Shown: piece after piece, positions 40,967 through 53,249 of the stretch
Layout of the letters: each line of letters begins with the position of its first letter
Position numbering within the stretch: the first letter of the stretch is position 1
Translations under genes and position numbers: made by a program
From: Vicugna vicugna
Lineage: Eukaryota
Length of the DNA stretch: 64,000 nucleotides
Direction: 5' to 3'
NCBI GenBank assembly: GCA_013265495.1
Contig: MU059537.1
Coordinates: 2,294,001 to 2,358,000 of the forward strand
The notes under the pieces: generated by a model
What the model was told of the DNA's origin: nothing
Seen by the model: the letters and a program-made list of their open reading frames with translations, nothing else
The model's database searches: none

Positions 40967-41500
40967 TGATGGAGAGTGGGGTTTTCCCCCTACACCCCCT
41001 CTGGGGCTCTTGTGGCTGGACTAATGAGAAAGGTGACACAGGACAGATTAGTGGGAGGAAAAGCAACAGGTTTTAATTCATGCACGTGGAGTTGTCTTAG
41101 AAATGGGACCTAAGAAGTGGCCAAAACTGGCAGCTTTTATACTTTTTGGACAAAGAAACAGTGTGTGTGTGTGAGGAACTGGCAGGGAAAAGAAGCTTAG
41201 GCTTCGGGCGATTCATCAGTGAAGAACCTGAGCGGAGCTTGGGCTCGGGGCCGTGAATTAAAATCAGGAGGTTTGTTTACACCGGCTTCTCGGCCCTGGA
41301 TGCCCTGTCTCTGGCAGTGAAGGTGTCCCACCTCCAAATGCGGGCAGTGCGCGTTTCACGTGAGAGATTTATCTCCTGCTCTCAGGGTGACAGAGAGAAG
41401 GGTCACTGTCCCGCCTGCATTGGCCATTTCTTGAGTCACTTTAATTCAAAATCAATATGCCATTGAGACATATTTGAGGGCAGCCTGCCCTGGGTCAATA
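40967..41500 (-). mobile_element. ERV1 solo LTR, MER34-like
   Basis: 534 bp flanked by the 4-bp direct repeat CTAG (40963-40966 and 41501-41504). The minus-strand start (aatatgtctcaatggcatattgattttgaattaaag) resembles recalled MER34-family U3. Minus-strand TATAAAA at 41141-41135 and ATTAAA at 41077-41072. Confidence 0.8.
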
Positions 41501-43765: not shown

Positions 43766-44109
43766 GTAAGGAGAAAATAGGAAACAGTTTTTACCATTGC
43801 ATCATCTTGGAGACCCCAGAGTTGCCTCGCTGGTACACGGGAGGGTTCTACTCAGGGGTGTGGCTGTGGGGGCAGAGGTCACTGGGGTCGTCTTGGGGAC
43901 TGGCTAGCACGCCAGCTAGCACGGTAGCGGTGGGTCATGCCCATGAACGCATAGCCGCGCTCCCGTCGCCACCACTCGTCTGCCCCCTTAGCTCACACAC
44001 GCTGGGGGTGGGAAGGGGACAGGGAAATCTCAGTGGGAAATCAGTGACTAGATGTGTAAGGGGGTGGCTTGCTGGTAACTCTGGGTGTGGGCTCCAAACA
44101 CGCATTCTT

Positions 44110-44386
44110 TTTTTTTTGTGGAAGTGTAGTTGATTTACAATGTTAGTTTCAGGTGTACAGCAAAGCGATTCAGTTATACATATACATACATATATTTTCA
44201 GATCCCTTTCCATTATAACTTATTACAAGAAATTAACTCTACTTCGCTGTGCTGTACAGTAGGTCCTTGTTGTTTATCTATGTTATATGTGGTGTGTATC
44301 TGTTAATCCCAAACTCCTAATTTATCCCCCGTCCCACTTTCCCCCTTGGTAACCACAGTTTGTTTTTATGTCTGAGTCTGTTCTGG
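44110..44386 (-). mobile_element. 5'-truncated L1 3' end (cetartiodactyl type) with poly(A) and 17-bp TSD
   Basis: T-run followed by gaagtgtagttgatttacaatgttagtttcaggtgtacagcaaag...ggtaaccacagtttg, the characteristic artiodactyl L1 3' UTR. TSD tccaaacacgcattctt (44093-44109) and tccagacactcattctt (44387-44403), 15/17 identical. Confidence 0.9.
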
Positions 44387-44473: not shown

Positions 44474-47344
44474 GTCAGTGAGCCTTCATAAAACTGTGTA
44501 CAATTATTCTGCTCACCTCACTGGGTAACCTGAGTTTGAGGACGAGTGACGTCCAGTGTAGAGGAATGATGGTTCTAAAATCAGAAAACTCACTCACTAT
44601 TGTTAAAAGCAAGGAAGCAAACAGAAATACTGTGGTGTGACAGCCACCTGTCGGGTATCCGGGTGGAGAACCACCAGGTCACCCAGGCCCTGGCTGGCGG
44701 GTCACCACATCTAGCGTTTGCTGTTGTCTGATAGACTTTGAAGTTTCGTAGGGTCTTGACAAACCCGACACTACTGCTTCACAAACTGCGGGCATCAGGT
44801 CTCAGTGTTGCTGGAACGAGAGACTGCCCTGGTGCAGCGTTAGGTTAAGAGACTGCACAAAGCATAGCTGCCTCGGGGCTATTAACTGAGTCTTACCCTC
44901 CCTTTCTGGGGTCATAGGTGGTGGCTGAACTCCTCGCTGAAGGACTCTGCAGGTGGGGAATTTCAACTGAGCCTTAAGTATGCAGTCTTCGCTGTCAGCT
45001 TGCCGGCTGCTGGGTGCTGCCCCTGCCAGGGAATGGCCTTTATTCAGGGAAACAAAAGCAAATCAATTAAACAGATAAGGAGTTCCCTCCACTAAGTAGG
45101 AGTTATTTTCTCTATCAGCCCAGCCCCGCTTGAAGTGCTGATGTCTTGGGACAATGGCTCTGCCTTTGTTCTTCTATAATTCCCTTCAAGGGAGATTTGT
45201 TCCTTTACATAATCAAGAGAAAGCCAAAGAAAGCTTCCATCCAGAGAAAGAACACAAATTAATGCTGTATCTGAGAGACAGGGGTTTGCTTCTCCACTTG
45301 GGAGTCCATGGCGACCTTGAGAAGTTCTCAGGGTTCACTTGCAGAATGAACTCCCAGGGAGCTGCAGCCAGTAGGTGAGATACCTGGTGTGCTAAGAGCT
45401 AAGGCCAGTTTACCTGCTTTAAGTACTACCTCCTGCAAAGGTCAGCATCATCCTGGGAGGCAGAGATACTGTTCCACCTTACAGACTAGGAAACTAGAGT
45501 TTGGCAAGATTAAGTGCTAGAATTATGAAACTAGTGGGTGGTATAGCCAAGGTGATCCCTACTATGCCCCACGGTAGTAGCCTGCTGTTAGACCCCAGCA
45601 ACGCTACCTCCAGCGCCAGCACCAAGGACAGCTCCCAAGGAGGGCAAAGCTAAGCTGCCTCTGGTAATGATCCTGTAACAGCTTCCCCTTACGACCGCCT
45701 GTTGTTGGGAGAATGAGTTGCAGAGGACTCACCGGCTTGCCTTGGTTCTTGGCTTCAAGCTCAAACCTGTCTCTGTGCTCTTGGTTCATCCGAAGCCAAT
45801 CTCCAGGAAACAGAACAGAGGACTGTTTCGTTTCCTTTCTGCTGAATTTCACTTATCGCTGCCAGACCTGGGGGCACGAAGATGAATTTGTAAATTGAAA
45901 ATGCTACTCATAATGGAGCATCTATGGTCACTGTTAATGTCCTTTTATAACCAAAGGTCCTGGGTGGCCACTGGTCACATGCATCATCAGGAAGGTTTGA
46001 TTTGCTTGTTTGCAGCTTGTGATCCAGCATCTGGGAAACCAGCTTCCCTAAGATTTGTCTTGCAGATTTACAGCTGTTCCCTCTGGCTGCCGGGTCTGGG
46101 GAGGTCACTGACATCATCAACTGCAGAGCTCCGATCTAGAGCTTTCAGACCGCATAGACACTGACTCTACGGGTTAGGGTCTGAGGTAGTGGCTGCTGTT
46201 TGATTATGAGCCATGTAGAGGAAGAAGAAGCAAGATGGTAATCAGAACATGATTTTCTGGACACATAATTTTCTGCAGAGTCAGATGTTAAAGCCTCTTC
46301 CAGTTTGACTATTCTGTCCTTCACGAAAAACATGGTTTTCTTCTCACCCACATGTGCACCAGTCATGTAACGGGAGCTGTAGGACTGGAGACACTAAATG
46401 AGCAGAAGCCCCCGCTTGGAGCCCACGAGTCTGGGAGGCAGAGTCATACCTCCTCTGCCAGAAAAGGTCCTGGAATCCCATTCTGCCCAGAAGGCAGCCC
46501 AAAGCCATTTAGTCCATGCTGTCTTCAGGAGAGAAGTCTTTTCACCTACAGCTGCCTTGATCCTGGAAGGTTCTCACCAAGCATGGCCTTGAACAGCTCC
46601 CTTCCAAGTCAGGAGGTATAGAGTTAGGTCAGATATGGGCCATGCCTTTTAGGGCCTGATGTGCTGGAGAAGAAAGACCTACAAGGTCACCTGGTAAGCG
46701 GGGTGGCCGTCTGCTTTAGTGAATTAGCTTTGTACAAAACAAAACAAACTTCTGACGTCTTTTTAACTGGAGGTAGTTTGTAGCTTGGAACAAGGGGCCC
46801 TGTAGTTAGGCTCCTCCCTTCCTGCAGAACCTGGGAGATGGGGTTTCATTTTCCTTGATGATTACATTTCAAAACAATGTTCCCAGGTCCTTGAGAAAGA
46901 CTTTCCTGGGACCTAGAGCTGGCAAAAGGCTTATTTAGCTTTGGAAAAGGCTTACATACATTTCAAAGCGACAGAGAAAGAACTCACAGTGATGAGTTTT
47001 CTAAAGTAAATGCTCTAATAAAAGGGGTGTGGTGGGAGTTCCTTCCCTGATTTTCAACAGGAAAAACAAAACCCTAACAGTCGATCCTCAGTAAACATCT
47101 GCTGAAGAGAACCGAGATAGCCAAGTAGCAAACTAGTAATGACCCTGGGATGTGGGCTCCAGAGGGGCAGGTTGTTTTTTTTGTTTCTAATCTGTCTTTG
47201 ATGGCTGTATTCTCTGTGCATAGAATGGTTCCCAGAGCATGATCAATCAGACTCTAAATCCGGCGATCTGCACATCATAAAACCAGTGGGACAAGGCGTC
47301 ACAACCTAGGAAAATAACCAGGAAAGTAACCTGGTCAGAGCAGG

Positions 47345-48645: not shown

Positions 48646-49154
48646 TACTCTGCGATGCCCACAGACACCGTGTTGACTCTGCTCCTTTCCTTCCCACACT
48701 TGTAACATCCCAGTTTCCTCCTAACTGACCCCATCTCTTCATCCTGGACCTTCTAGCCCACCCTGCACCGCAGCCTGAGGCACCCTCCTGAAGCCTAGGG
48801 TGGTCCTACATCCTTCTGCTGGTTTCCAGAGCCTACAAGTAAATTCAGATTCTCGGGCTAACACAAAAGATTGTCAGTGAAGTGGGCTCTGCCTGGATCC
48901 CCAGCCCCATTTTCTGCTGATCCCATCCTGCCCCCTACAGCCCAGTTAAGCCATTGCACCAACAGTCCCTCAACCAGGCCTAACTGTTCTCATCTGCTGA
49001 CATCCTGCCTGGCCTGCAGCACCGTCTTGACAAGAGACTAATGAAGAATGAGTGATTGAATAAGTGGAAGGATGTAATGCCAAAATTTTTCTTTTGCAAG
49101 GTAAGCTCTAGCCAGATTTTCAGTAATGGTCCTTCTTTCTTTTTTTCTCCTAAG

Positions 49155-49208
49155 GGAAGTAAAGGAGAGCGTGGTGCAGATGGTGAGACTGGGCAGAAAG
49201 GCGATCAG
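49155..49208 (+). CDS. COL22A1: COL22A1 exon (19, 54 nt): GSKGERGADGETGQKGDQ
   Basis: ttttctcctaag|GGAAGT...GATCAG|gtaaaa. Confidence 0.95.
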
Positions 49209-49519
49209 GTAAAAACTTATTTTATGAGGAACCATCCACCCTGAAGAAACATCACTGTTTTTCCTAGGTAACTTTTATTCCCAGATCCCCAAATTCATTT
49301 CTGAAATCATTTCTTGCCTCTTCTTTGTCTTCGGTAGGATTTTTTAAAATCATGTTTTTGTGGTTTCCACCTTGGTTCACTGGCACACTCCCCTTCCCCC
49401 ATTATCTGAGGACCCTGTCTTGTCATTTCTTTAAAAAAATGTTTTAAAATGTGCTCGTTCAGAGCTTCTTGCTCACTGAGATGGTGGTCATTCATCACAA
49501 AATGCCAAATGCCCCTTCT

Positions 49520-50000
49520 TGCCTCCCGCGAGACTCCCCCGTGCTGCAGCCGAGAGCTTCGCAGACCCCCTCCCCGCTGGGGCCGCTCCTCCCGGGGCCT
49601 CGGGGGGCGCCGCTGACCTTGACGTGCTGCGCCGCCTCGCGCCGAGCGCGGCTCCCGTCCAGCCCGGGGCGCCGCCGCCGCTCACCCCGCAGCGCCGCTG
49701 CTCAGCCGCTAGCGGCCTTCCTGCACTCAGACTGGCTGTGGTGCTTGGGCTGTGCTGCTGCCACTCCTTCCCCGCTTTGCTTTTCCTTCCCTCCTCCCGC
49801 CTCGCCTTCCTCCTTCCTTCTGAGCCTTCCGTCCGTCTCAGTGGGCGCCCCGCGCTGGCGCCGCCCCGGGCTCTGCGATGCGGGGCGAGTAACGCGCGAA
49901 CCCGGCCTCACTTACCGGAGGGGGCGGGGCGCGCGAGCGGAGGCGCGGCGGCGGTGCCATCAGAGCTGCGCGCAAGGTCGGAACGACAGACTCGGCTAGA
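49520..50000 (-). promoter_or_regulatory. Intronic CpG island with promoter motifs and two antisense 5' splice sites
   Basis: About 60 CpGs in about 480 bp by hand count, with AT-rich flanks. GC box GGGGCGGGGC at 49921-49930 and TCCCGCGAGA at 49524-49533 (one mismatch to the BANP motif TCTCGCGAGA). Minus-strand donors CCG|GTAAGT (49916/49915) and GGG|GTGAGC (49686/49685). Confidence 0.8.
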
Positions 50001-50369
50001 GTTCCGTCTGTATCTTGAAAAACAACGTGTGTTTGGGTTATTCTTATAGGAGGGAGTTGTCAACGGCAGTGCTTCTCTGCTGAGCGTCACTGCAGCTTGT
50101 GTTTCCCTGCGGAGGGATGGGGGGGACTCAGGAGAATCACTTCTTTCATGGTGGTTTGTTCGCTTTTATAACATTGCTGTGCTAAGCTAAACGTGAGACG
50201 CGGTGCACTCTGCCCTGTAGCCGGTGTGGCTCATCCTGTAATACACGTGGACTCCTCTCCACGTGGGGACATGAATCTCTTATAATAACTGTAATAGGTT
50301 CATAGATTCTGTCGTTCAGTTAACCTAACAGTTTCCATTGTGGATATAAATGGTGTGTGCATGTATTTA

Positions 50370-50620
50370 TTTGTTTTAAATTTTCGCTGTGGGATACTTC
50401 AAACGTACATAAAAAGAAGAGAGTGTAATAAAAAGTGTCCGCCTGGCACTTGTCACCCAGGCACAGCGCCCTCCAGCTCTGGGGCCACTCCTCTGTCCCT
50501 CTGTACCCTTCACCGCTTCCCCCACACCTGCTTCCTCCACATCATTGTGAAGCAGATCCAGGTCCAGGATAGGTTTGGTTTTGTAAGCACTGTTAGATAC
50601 TTCCTCAACCACCTACTGAA
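50370..50620 (-). mobile_element. Old L1 (L1MC/ME) 3' end
   Basis: ttcaaacgtacataaaaagaagagagtgtaataa...gtcacccag...gaagcagatccag. Confidence 0.5.
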
Positions 50621-50764
50621 ATACATAAAAGTATGTATCTCCAGGGTTGTTATCTGAGTTAGAAGATAGATTCTGGCTTGTTGTCTGAAAGTGAAAAACT
50701 TCACTTTTCATAAGTGAAAAGCTTTTTACGAATCATTTAAAAGAATTGCTTTGTGTTTTCCTAG

Positions 50765-50818
50765 GGTCATCCAGGAGTTCCAGGTTTCATGGGGCCCCCA
50801 GGGAACCCAGGGCCACCG
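50765..50818 (+). CDS. COL22A1: COL22A1 exon (20, 54 nt): GHPGVPGFMGPPGNPGPP
   Basis: tgttttcctag|GGTCAT...CCACCG|gtaagt. Confidence 0.96.
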
Positions 50819-51544
50819 GTAAGTAATTATTTTTAATCCCTTCCTCTTTTGGCCTTGTCATCAGTACACACGTCCACACTCACTGGAGGTGCTGTCACCT
50901 TGACGTACCTCTTATTTGAAAGATTGGGCTGACCTGAGAGGTGTCCAGGGGTGAACTGGAAGTGCAGTCCCAGAGGCATGTGGAGTGAGCACGGAGGGTC
51001 TTGAGCAGCATTGAGGGACAGTGTAATTAGAATGCTCCTGGGATGGGAGGCTTTGGAAGGGATGGACAGGATCGACTTACTATTCTTTATCCAGCTTGGG
51101 AGGGGGGAGTTGGGGATAATTCCAAGGTTAGAATCTTAGGTAAGAAATGGAGAAGCAACTGTCCCTCTCCCATAGAAACCTGTCCCATAGTAAGAGGCTC
51201 TGGGAATCACAGGGTGTTTATGCAAGCTCAGACTTGCTTGGATTTACTATAATTGATAACAGTAATAATAACTACGGATTATTATTACTGTGCAGCATGA
51301 CTATTTTCAACAGTTCATTCATTAGCATTCTAAGGCCCTTGTTATCAGTGTATCTGCAACCACCATAGTATCACCCCATTTATTCCCCTGCCCCACCCCA
51401 CCCCCCAGGGCAAGTGTTCTCCTTGCTCTTAGAGTGGCCGTGGTGCTGATGTTGACTGATGCTCTTCTCAGCAACCTTGCCTCCCTTTGGTCTAGGCGGC
51501 CCACGGGTTACTCTTGTCCCTCCTCTGCTCGGTCCGCTGTGGTG

Positions 51545-51568
51545 GTTACCCGCGGTAGCCATGGTAAC
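51545..51568. promoter_or_regulatory. Tandem overlapping RFX X-box-like sites
   Basis: GTTACC-CGC-GGTAGC overlapping GTAGCC-AT-GGTAAC; each has one mismatch to the GTTRCC-n-GGYAAC palindrome. Confidence 0.5.
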
Positions 51569-53249
51569 GGGCTGTGGGAATTAGCATCCTCACCAAGCCA
51601 GGCCTGGTCCCCTGGCGTTTCCCATGGGTTCTTCAGGAGCCCTGGTCTCCCAGACCTTGCAGAGAAGGGGTCACTGGTAATGGCTAAAGGACCCTGAAAG
51701 GGAACCTGCTTCAGATAGGGACCAGCCTGTCGTAAATAATGAAGGATCGTGAAGTTAGAATGTATGAAATTAAGCTTGCTGTGTCTCCTTTTCAACGGCG
51801 TCTAGTTGGCTACTAATTGTAACTATGTGTTAATTCTTAAAATAAATCAAGTTGTTTTAAGTGTATTTTTTTCAATAAAATCATGAGAACATGAAACAAC
51901 ATCTTTCAGTTCATGACAGATTTTTCCACCAAAATCGTGGAAAGGTAAATCGTCTACAAAAGTATTGAAGCTTTCCGAGTTGCCCACAGAGCCTGCCCGA
52001 GATCGCTCATGTTCAGCTCATTCCATCCCCCTCTTTCTAGTGCCTTTGCTGTTAACATCCTTTTCAGTTTCTCGGCCTCAGGTCTTAACTGTTCCAACTC
52101 TGCCGTCTGCACATTTGTGAATGACCTGGTAGGGAAATGATCCGTTTGCTATCGTTTGATTTTGTGAAATTCTGCATATGTTTCAAAATGTGTAATTTCA
52201 TGCAGGGAATTTCTTTGCACTGTGTTTGTGTGTGTTACTGGATTTTGTGGCATCTGATCCGCAAAGAGAAAGACTGATCAAGATGGCAGCAGTACCGATA
52301 GCGGGAAAAGGCATCGGCGTGAAGTGAGGAAGGGACATTTGAGAGGGAAATACTAGCATATAAAAAAGCCCGGTTCTTGAATGACTCATTTCATACCATG
52401 ATGGCTGTAGCTTCCCTGCACAGCCAAGCAGCTGAAGAGCTCATAAAAAGTACTGAGTTAAAGCCCCATCCTCTTCCCACCCTGGTAGCTCCAAAGCCTA
52501 AAACACATCCCAGCCCAAGTGGAGCCCTGTTCTCTTCCCGTTGGGAGCTGCCGCGACTTCGAACTCTGATGACAACAGTAGCAAATGGCTTATTCTCCTG
52601 TTTGATGACGAATCTGAGATTCACAGTCACAAGCAGAAGCCAGCTTGTCTGCCTCCAGCTGGTTGGTGTGTTCTTTCAGCACCAGGCAGATGTGTATGAG
52701 CTTCCACTTTGTGCCCTGCCTTGGACTGTTAACTGCCCTTGGGAATAGACGCTGAGTCAGCTGCCCACTCAGGGTTAGGGGTCAGCCATGCAATAGGAAC
52801 TCAAGAGCAGGAAATGACCACTCTTCATCATTCATGCATTGTTTTTTGAGTGTTTATTGTGTGTTAGATAGCGATGCCAACAGACAAAGCTCCTTTCTTT
52901 GGTAGTCTATTTTCTGGTGCTCAGTCTGCATTCTTCTTCCAGGTAAAACCCTTACCCTGTTTCTAACCTGCTGGTTTAGCTAGATTCCAGAGTCCAGGAT
53001 GCCAGAAGCTTTCGGCAAAATTACGTAGAAGAATCCAGGTTAGGAGTAGAAGCTCGATTGTTCCGTTAGGTTTGGACTAGATGTGTGATTTTCCTTTGCA
53101 GCAGCCCAGGTACAGGGAAACACAAACCTTGTAGGCCGTTTGTTTAAATATTATCAACATCTTTTTGTTTCATGAACTTTTACTGGGTCATCACCTAGTG
53201 AAAGGCATGGAGGCAAATCAGACTGCATCTTGTCTCCAGGATTTGTTTT

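Follow-up and report, generated by a model that had tools for sequence, protein, structure and literature searches.

Location and composition of a CpG island in COL22A1

The window (the whole stretch of Vicugna vicugna DNA that was analysed, 64,000 nucleotides) contains exons of a gene that we take to be COL22A1, the name used in the original prediction. The VWA exon and the C-terminal motif of this gene were located on the contig, and its span runs from a promoter-like region at about contig 2,169,700 to the last coding motif at 2,381,600. The likely true promoter region (contig 2169650-2170100) is a weaker island, with 31 CpG in 450 bp and an observed/expected ratio (o/e) of 0.70. Within the window, two 54-nt exons, neither of which has a rise in GC3 (6/18 and 8/18), enclose a host intron of 1556 bp (49209-50764) that lies about 174 kb past the promoter-like region. 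A CpG island occupies part of this intron and starts 312 bp past the exon end at 49208 (Table 1). The original prediction had placed it 310 bp downstream of exon 19; the distance holds, but the exon number is not that of the gene's own numbering, and the exon lies about 82% along COL22A1.

The island core contains 63 CpG in 481 bp, in agreement with the roughly 60 in 480 bp predicted, with a GC content of 0.74 and a CpG o/e of 0.97. None of the other 500-bp bins of the window holds more than 32 CpG, about half the island's count. Among the 480-bp segments of the surrounding 664 kb (median 11 CpG, 99th percentile 33), the island comes third with 64 CpG. Ahead of it are the COL22A1 VWA exon (71 CpG) and, with 81 CpG, a promoter-like island at contig 2,427,600. 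The abrupt AT-rich borders that had been described were found on the left, where GC rises from 0.45 to 0.85 within 80 bp, but not on the right, where the core passes into a 300-bp shore. The core lies above the thresholds for orphan islands (GC >55%, o/e >0.65, several hundred bp), the shore extending it by 300 bp, and the island is intragenic, away from the start and the coding exons of COL22A1. The island itself is clearly more than chance, and 49520-50000 is a real, single-copy orphan intragenic CpG island in camelid COL22A1. From the retention of CpGs, we infer that the island is hypomethylated in the germ line.

Upstream of COL22A1, at a distance of about 180 kb, there are two further islands (contig 1989750-1990600, 67 CpG; contig 1993950-1994700, 56 CpG) separated by 4 kb, and no gene was identified with them.

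Table 1. Features in and around the host intron (window positions; a dot marks features without strand; chance figures refer to dinucleotide shuffles)
Feature	Position	Strand	Remarks
COL22A1 Gly-X-Y exon GSKGERGADGETGQKGDQ, upstream of host intron	49155..49208	+	54 nt
Candidate poly(A) site	49230..49279	-	AATAAA 49279-49274, A-run and CA about 18 nt on, then GU-rich tract
CpG island core	49520..50000	.	Two GC peaks flanking purine/pyrimidine tract
TCCCGCGAGA	49524..49533	+	One base off BANP/ZBTB33-type palindrome; about 3% of shuffles
E2F-type TCCCGC	within 49524..49533; second copy 49795		
Moderate candidate splice donor GGG/GTGAGC (49686)	49680..49688	-	Score 7.0
Purine-rich tract, 5'UTR-like	49761..49845	-	Plus strand 41 C, 29 T, 12 G, 3 A
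Strong candidate splice donor CCG/GTAAGT (49916)	49910..49918	-	Score 10.3
GC box GGGGCGGGGC	49921..49930	+	About 3% of shuffles
TGCGCGCA palindrome	49967..49974	.	NRF1 half-sites, full NRF1 site absent; about 3% of shuffles
CpG-retaining shore, minus-strand upstream side	50001..50300	.	GC 0.49, 12 CpG, o/e 0.69
MYB-type site	50061		In shore
CACGTG E-boxes (two)	50244, 50260		In shore
Strong candidate splice acceptor (next base 50106)	50107..50126	-	Score 11.5
COL22A1 Gly-X-Y exon GHPGVPGFMGPPGNPGPP, downstream of host intron	50765..50818	+	54 nt

Presence of the island in DNA and RNA sequencing runs

Fourteen of the 24 listed runs, all of them DNA runs (five organism labels, six studies), contained 0.80-1.00 of 54 island words; two of these are possible sources. 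Three DNA rows not marked as source contained 0.96 of the words, whereas misjoins at the two visible edges would have brought the expected share down to 0.89, and the island is hardly an assembly error.

The best listed RNA-seq run, labelled reproductive system, contained 0.20 of the words, close to the 0.21-0.23 that a single candidate exon is expected to yield. In the five remaining RNA-type rows listed, the shares were 0.17-0.04, small values that were left out of the evidence. The share of 0.20, which comes from one study, could be due to DNA carry-over or to COL22A1 pre-mRNA. The housekeeping-type motifs would suggest broad activity, but the shares in the six listed RNA-type rows fall from 0.20 to 0.04, a pattern that gives no support to a promoter of housekeeping type active in many tissues.

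Promoter-type motifs and antisense-directed signals

The GC box, TCCCGCGAGA and TGCGCGCA were all found where the original prediction had placed them. The chance figures given for these motifs in Table 1 were obtained from 3000 dinucleotide shuffles and refer to motifs selected post hoc, and the names BANP/ZBTB33, E2F and MYB are our own assignments. The ZFP57 motif TGCCGC was found 0 times on both strands of 48900-50800. At 51548-51570 of the window, 1.5 kb from the island, there is a near-perfect X-box-like palindrome, presumably RFX-type, in a patch with 8 CpG in 140 bp; RFX factors are regulators in testis and cilia.

Both minus-strand donors are present at 49916 and 49686 as predicted, and the sense strand has weak donors only: scored with a matrix made from textbook frequencies, the top plus-strand donor within the island reaches 4.4 (4.4-5.7 in and near the island), compared to 10.3 and 7.0 on the minus strand. 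Two such donors on one strand occurred in 1.2% of 3000 dinucleotide shuffles (P 0.012) and the top donor alone in 4.1%; across the surrounding 664 kb, donors matching the top one are found at 0.08 per 480 bp per strand. The COL22A1 exon donor at 50816-50824 (plus strand) has the same 9-mer as the antisense donor at 49910-49918, which is taken as a coincidence, there being no wider similarity. The minus-strand acceptor, which the original prediction did not mention, scores within the range of COL22A1's own flanking acceptors (11.5 vs 13.2 and 10.5). If it is used, 50106-49916 could be an internal exon of 191 nt, and the predicted exon 1a would then belong to a transcript starting further on.

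Two signals that the original prediction had not drawn on, GC skew and a poly(A) site, agree with this direction. The sign of the GC skew flips at about 49,916, with G:C of 116:176 to the left and 100:60 to the right (P 0.0005 and 0.002, respectively), and 3.2% of 474 gene-body bins are equally skewed. The skew continues into the non-island left flank (-0.26), and the purine tract supplies much of it. The candidate poly(A) site at 49279 would end an unspliced antisense RNA of about 750 nt inside the host intron; on the plus-strand side, an AATAAA lies at 50427. Further AATAAA sites in COL22A1 introns lie upstream of the island at 47,017 and 47,961. Directional signals (U1 sites, a G-rich sense strand and a poly(A) site) are thus found together on one strand, with a significance that is modest and partly post hoc. 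The predicted antisense promoter is partly supported, by its composition, donor asymmetry, skew switch and poly(A) signal, and the antisense-promoter reading is plausible.

None of 87 long minus-strand frames, reaching about 450 kb downstream, matched Pfam. These comprised all 77 frames of at least 150 aa within single loci and 10 of the window's longer frames. The nested antisense gene that had been proposed was not borne out by this screen, a nested retrogene was rejected, and any antisense transcript is probably non-coding because of the lack of a Pfam match in these frames. A structured RNA or snoRNA, considered for a UGAUGA...CUGA-like stretch at about 49,460-49,500, was rejected with 0 Rfam matches at E 1.

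Search for a parent locus

The original prediction had offered a captured copy of another gene's promoter as an alternative and had proposed a BLASTN search for the parent. In the animal's own genome, searches with the island and with the whole intron (E 10) found this locus only, and a 36-mer with three mismatches, two island sub-pieces and two six-frame searches, each with a translated frame, returned only the island itself; the remaining matches had E values of 0.06 or worse and could not be aligned as DNA. A control DNA search with a CpG-rich LTR gave 58 matches, most at 65-75% identity, implying that a single parent at 85% identity or more would very likely have been detected, if assembled. 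No second copy was thus found by a search sensitive to 65-75% identity, and the captured promoter copy is not supported. In the surrounding 664 kb, a duplication of the island was sought and only pyrimidine-tract matches of about 40 nt were found.

Upstream of the promoter-like region of COL22A1, at a distance of about 22 kb, an LTR-like element at contig 2147150-2147750 is CpG-rich (39 CpG in 480 bp) and carries a YY1-type motif; it has 57 other matches in the genome, mostly 65-75% identical, an identity which indicates that the element is old, yet CpG-retaining.

On re-examination of the edges, no target-site duplication (TSD) or poly(A) tail was found, as had been noted before. No TSD is perfect, and 11 flank matches of 10-12 nt with at most one mismatch are about the chance level for AT-rich flanks. 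A match to an L1 5' UTR or an ERV, which the original prediction had named as grounds for dropping the promoter interpretation, was not found when the island was compared with 10 L1 loci with 5' ends and 19 LTR loci of this genome. Elsewhere in the window there are an L1 3' end at 44107-44380, which we take to be artiodactyl-type, and LTR-like pieces at 41000-41500 and 46650-47070, identified by eye; no repeated SINE was found in the 64 kb by self-BLAST.

None of eight island reading frames matched Pfam, two island frames had no protein relative in word-indexed searches, and island frames were not found in viral or metagenome contigs. Five matches in a search of 1.8 billion protein sequences were tandem-repeat proteins and were judged spurious. 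Of 2,033 human intronic islands that mouse lacks, only 104 could be traced to a parent at another locus (PMC4122923), so that parentless islands are the rule.

Comparison with mouse

Judged from their coordinates and matching spacing, two mouse chr15 islands presumably correspond to the promoter of Fam135b and the VWA exon of Col22a1. The mouse CAP-seq data, as far as the available part of PMC2944787 goes, place the first at a promoter (71.558 Mb) and the second, which is methylated in blood, in a gene body (71.837 Mb), and have no island between the two. The spacing of these flanking islands is 278 kb in mouse vs 237 kb here, and the mouse equivalent of the COL22A1 island would fall at about 71.66 Mb of chr15. 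No island was found in this matching interval in the available CAP-seq list, the identity of the mouse genes being presumed. Absence in mouse alone cannot separate a camelid gain from a rodent loss.

No paper was found in the literature linking COL22A1 to an intragenic island or a nested antisense RNA. The available part of PMC8964427 has a trans-correlation only and nothing on a COL22A1 intragenic island, and the supplements of PMC4122923 and PMC7470969, in the parts at hand, do not name COL22A1, neither of them being a full island list.

Origin of the island and proposed mechanism

The promoter and captured-copy alternatives of the original prediction did not include growth in place by GC-biased gene conversion (gBGC), although this is published for many islands. 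According to the available parts of these papers, orphan islands are mostly species-specific and many overlap gBGC tracts (PMC11170920), gBGC produced many new islands of about 300 bp in dog (PMC4350167), and many mammals that retain PRDM9 also have active hotspots linked to hypomethylation, camelids not being mentioned (PMC11161765).

A fossil sequence under the island was searched for with a matrix tolerant of W-to-S changes, with which simulated controls gave 167, 168 and 54 bits against a background of about 40. An L1 fossil was rejected (10 L1 loci; 37.9 bits vs 37.5-43.7 in six shuffles), and no fossil from the 664 kb of neighbouring DNA was found (45.5 bits vs 35-48 in five shuffles). 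A resemblance to MIR seen by eye at 49,873-49,935 was rejected with an in-genome profile of 212 copies (18.3 bits vs 19.2 +/- 1.8 in 60 shuffles), and an apparent likeness of 50,395-50,600 to L1M did not hold up. Growth in place is the likely reading, reached by exclusion and base rate. An SSXRD exon, presumably of PRDM9/PRDM7 type as judged from its peptide, is open at G000:C4951:30966-31058, with no visible break in that exon.

We tentatively prefer, at a little under an even chance, a lineage-restricted orphan intragenic island that was built in place by gBGC at a germline-unmethylated site and fires antisense in a tissue-restricted manner. Germ-line hypomethylation would be required for the retention of CpGs, and PRDM9-independent recombination at hypomethylated sites would bring a repair bias that replaces A/T by G/C and adds CpGs along a stretch of a few hundred bases. 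The unmethylated CpG-dense DNA, together with the GC-box, E2F- and MYB-type sites, would give open chromatin and a Pol II start at about 49,900-50,010, firing in some tissues, perhaps reproductive ones. The U1 sites at 49916 and 49686 would favour the minus direction, and the non-coding RNA would end at the AATAAA at 49,279 (about 49,255) or splice onward into COL22A1. In tissues with an active promoter, interference could reduce COL22A1 transcripts or cut them short; where COL22A1 is strongly transcribed, the island would tend to be methylated and off.

Judged from sequence, the predicted role of the island is that of a weak, tissue-restricted promoter that fires backwards into COL22A1, a common type of element in mammals, and an effect on COL22A1 is possible, by analogy throughout. 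In the available text of the respective papers, 42-60% of orphan islands carry promoter marks, which are tissue-restricted (PMC2944787), the activity of intragenic islands is correlated with premature termination in the host gene (PMC7470969), and H13/Mcts2 combines an intragenic island with early host-transcript termination (PMC13309782). Against growth by gBGC, GC3 is not raised in the flanking exons, and a conversion tract would hardly be expected to end as abruptly as the island does on its left.

Alternative explanations

The island may instead be a neutral GC peak, that is, a germline-unmethylated hotspot inflated by gBGC without a productive promoter, its donors and motifs being by-products of high GC. 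Each motif is expected by chance at about 3% and was picked post hoc, top-grade donors are found nearby at the density given above, the listed RNA rows contain at most 0.20 of the words, and the size is like that of the dog gBGC islands (available part of PMC4350167). However, the donor pair, the skew switch at the first donor and the poly(A) site agree in direction, and about half of orphan islands show initiation (available part of PMC2944787); we regard the neutral peak as unlikely, but as a reading to be taken seriously. An older, conserved antisense lncRNA promoter, common to laurasiatherians or to all placentals but missing, or eroded of its CpGs, in mouse, would account for the well-formed promoter anatomy, the large number of CpGs (in the available part of PMC11170920, islands found in several species are usually richer in CpG than those of a single species) and the near-identity across five organism labels. 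It is rather improbable given that the mouse interval lacks an island in the list available, that the literature search found no paper tying COL22A1 to such an island or RNA, and that most orphan islands are species-specific in the same part of PMC11170920.

We consider it quite improbable that the promoter and first exons of another gene were copied here by way of DNA or RNA, with the parent lost, diverged or missing from the assembly. The sharp left edge and the housekeeping-promoter look with two first-exon donors would fit such a copy, but DNA, pattern and six-frame searches gave no parent, there is no TSD or tail, three frames had no protein relative and eight no Pfam match, the 5' exons of a housekeeping parent would be expected in many RNA runs, whereas the listed shares drop to 0.04, and the proportion of islands with a parent elsewhere in PMC4122923, as far as available, is small (104/2,033). 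GC-rich promoters can be missing from assemblies, and the parent could be one of these. A regulatory island, being either a sense internal start of a short COL22A1 RNA or an enhancer for the promoter island 84 kb downstream (presumably FAM135B), is very unlikely. The next COL22A1 exon has an in-frame Met, but the plus-strand donors have low scores (4.4-5.7) and there is an AATAAA further on, at 50427; an enhancer is in keeping with the enrichment of orphan islands at enhancers with species-specific activity in the available part of PMC11170920. An assembly misjoin bringing a foreign promoter into the intron is scarcely credible, as the words contained at 0.96 in independent DNA runs span both visible edges and the contig is 6.1 Mb long, has 25 N over 464 kb and shows the exons in regular order.

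An extension of the preferred reading, a camelid-born promoter with a spliced antisense RNA in reproductive tissue, a COL22A1 cut short and a new oocyte-derived methylation mark without a retrotransposed parent, is highly doubtful. By synteny, the island presumably lies next to the KCNK9/TRAPPC9/PEG13 imprinted region.

Significance and comparison with known systems

The island is one more intragenic member, apparently lineage-restricted, of a class that numbers thousands, and it draws attention to a predicted non-coding start within camelid COL22A1 that is probably absent from annotations. The island lies in a short intron between two conserved exons, which makes the ancestral state easy to recover. 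If the island was written over ordinary intron and yields a spliced antisense RNA, it would provide a clean single-locus test of gBGC alone creating a directional promoter that affects a host gene; if a promoter or an imprint was born in place, it would be a dateable case without a retrotransposed parent.

Like the orphan and intragenic islands of PMC2944787 and PMC7470969, as described in the parts available, the COL22A1 island is CpG-dense, in a gene body, far from an annotated start, equipped with promoter-type motifs and likely tissue-restricted. In PMC2944787, as available, non-methylation, H3K4me3 and initiation are known for such islands, whereas the COL22A1 island is known from its sequence and has no counterpart listed in the matching mouse interval. 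It resembles the species-specific and gBGC islands of PMC11170920, PMC4350167 and PMC11161765, within the available portions, in being a few hundred bases long, single copy, marked by a GC step and apparently lineage-restricted. It differs from a plain gBGC GC peak in adding directional promoter signals, and it has no fossil repeat with which substitutions could be polarised.

With the retrocopy islands of RB1/PPP1R26P1 (PMC4122923) and H13/Mcts2 (PMC13309782), as far as their available descriptions go, the COL22A1 island has in common an intronic position, absence in mouse and a possible disturbance of host elongation or polyadenylation, but no parent gene, retrogene body, TSD or tail was found for it. 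The COL22A1 island further differs from retrocopy islands in being antisense, without a ZFP57 motif and with no sign of imprinting. Herc3/Nap1l5 is reportedly another retrocopy-derived intronic island. PEG13 in TRAPPC9 is an intronic island promoter of an antisense non-coding RNA, with a conserved maternal germline DMR and a long unspliced RNA. Unlike PEG13, the COL22A1 island has no TGCCGC motifs and no counterpart in the mouse list; it shares with PEG13 the intronic island, the promoter of an antisense non-coding RNA (a candidate here) and, presumably, the same syntenic neighbourhood.
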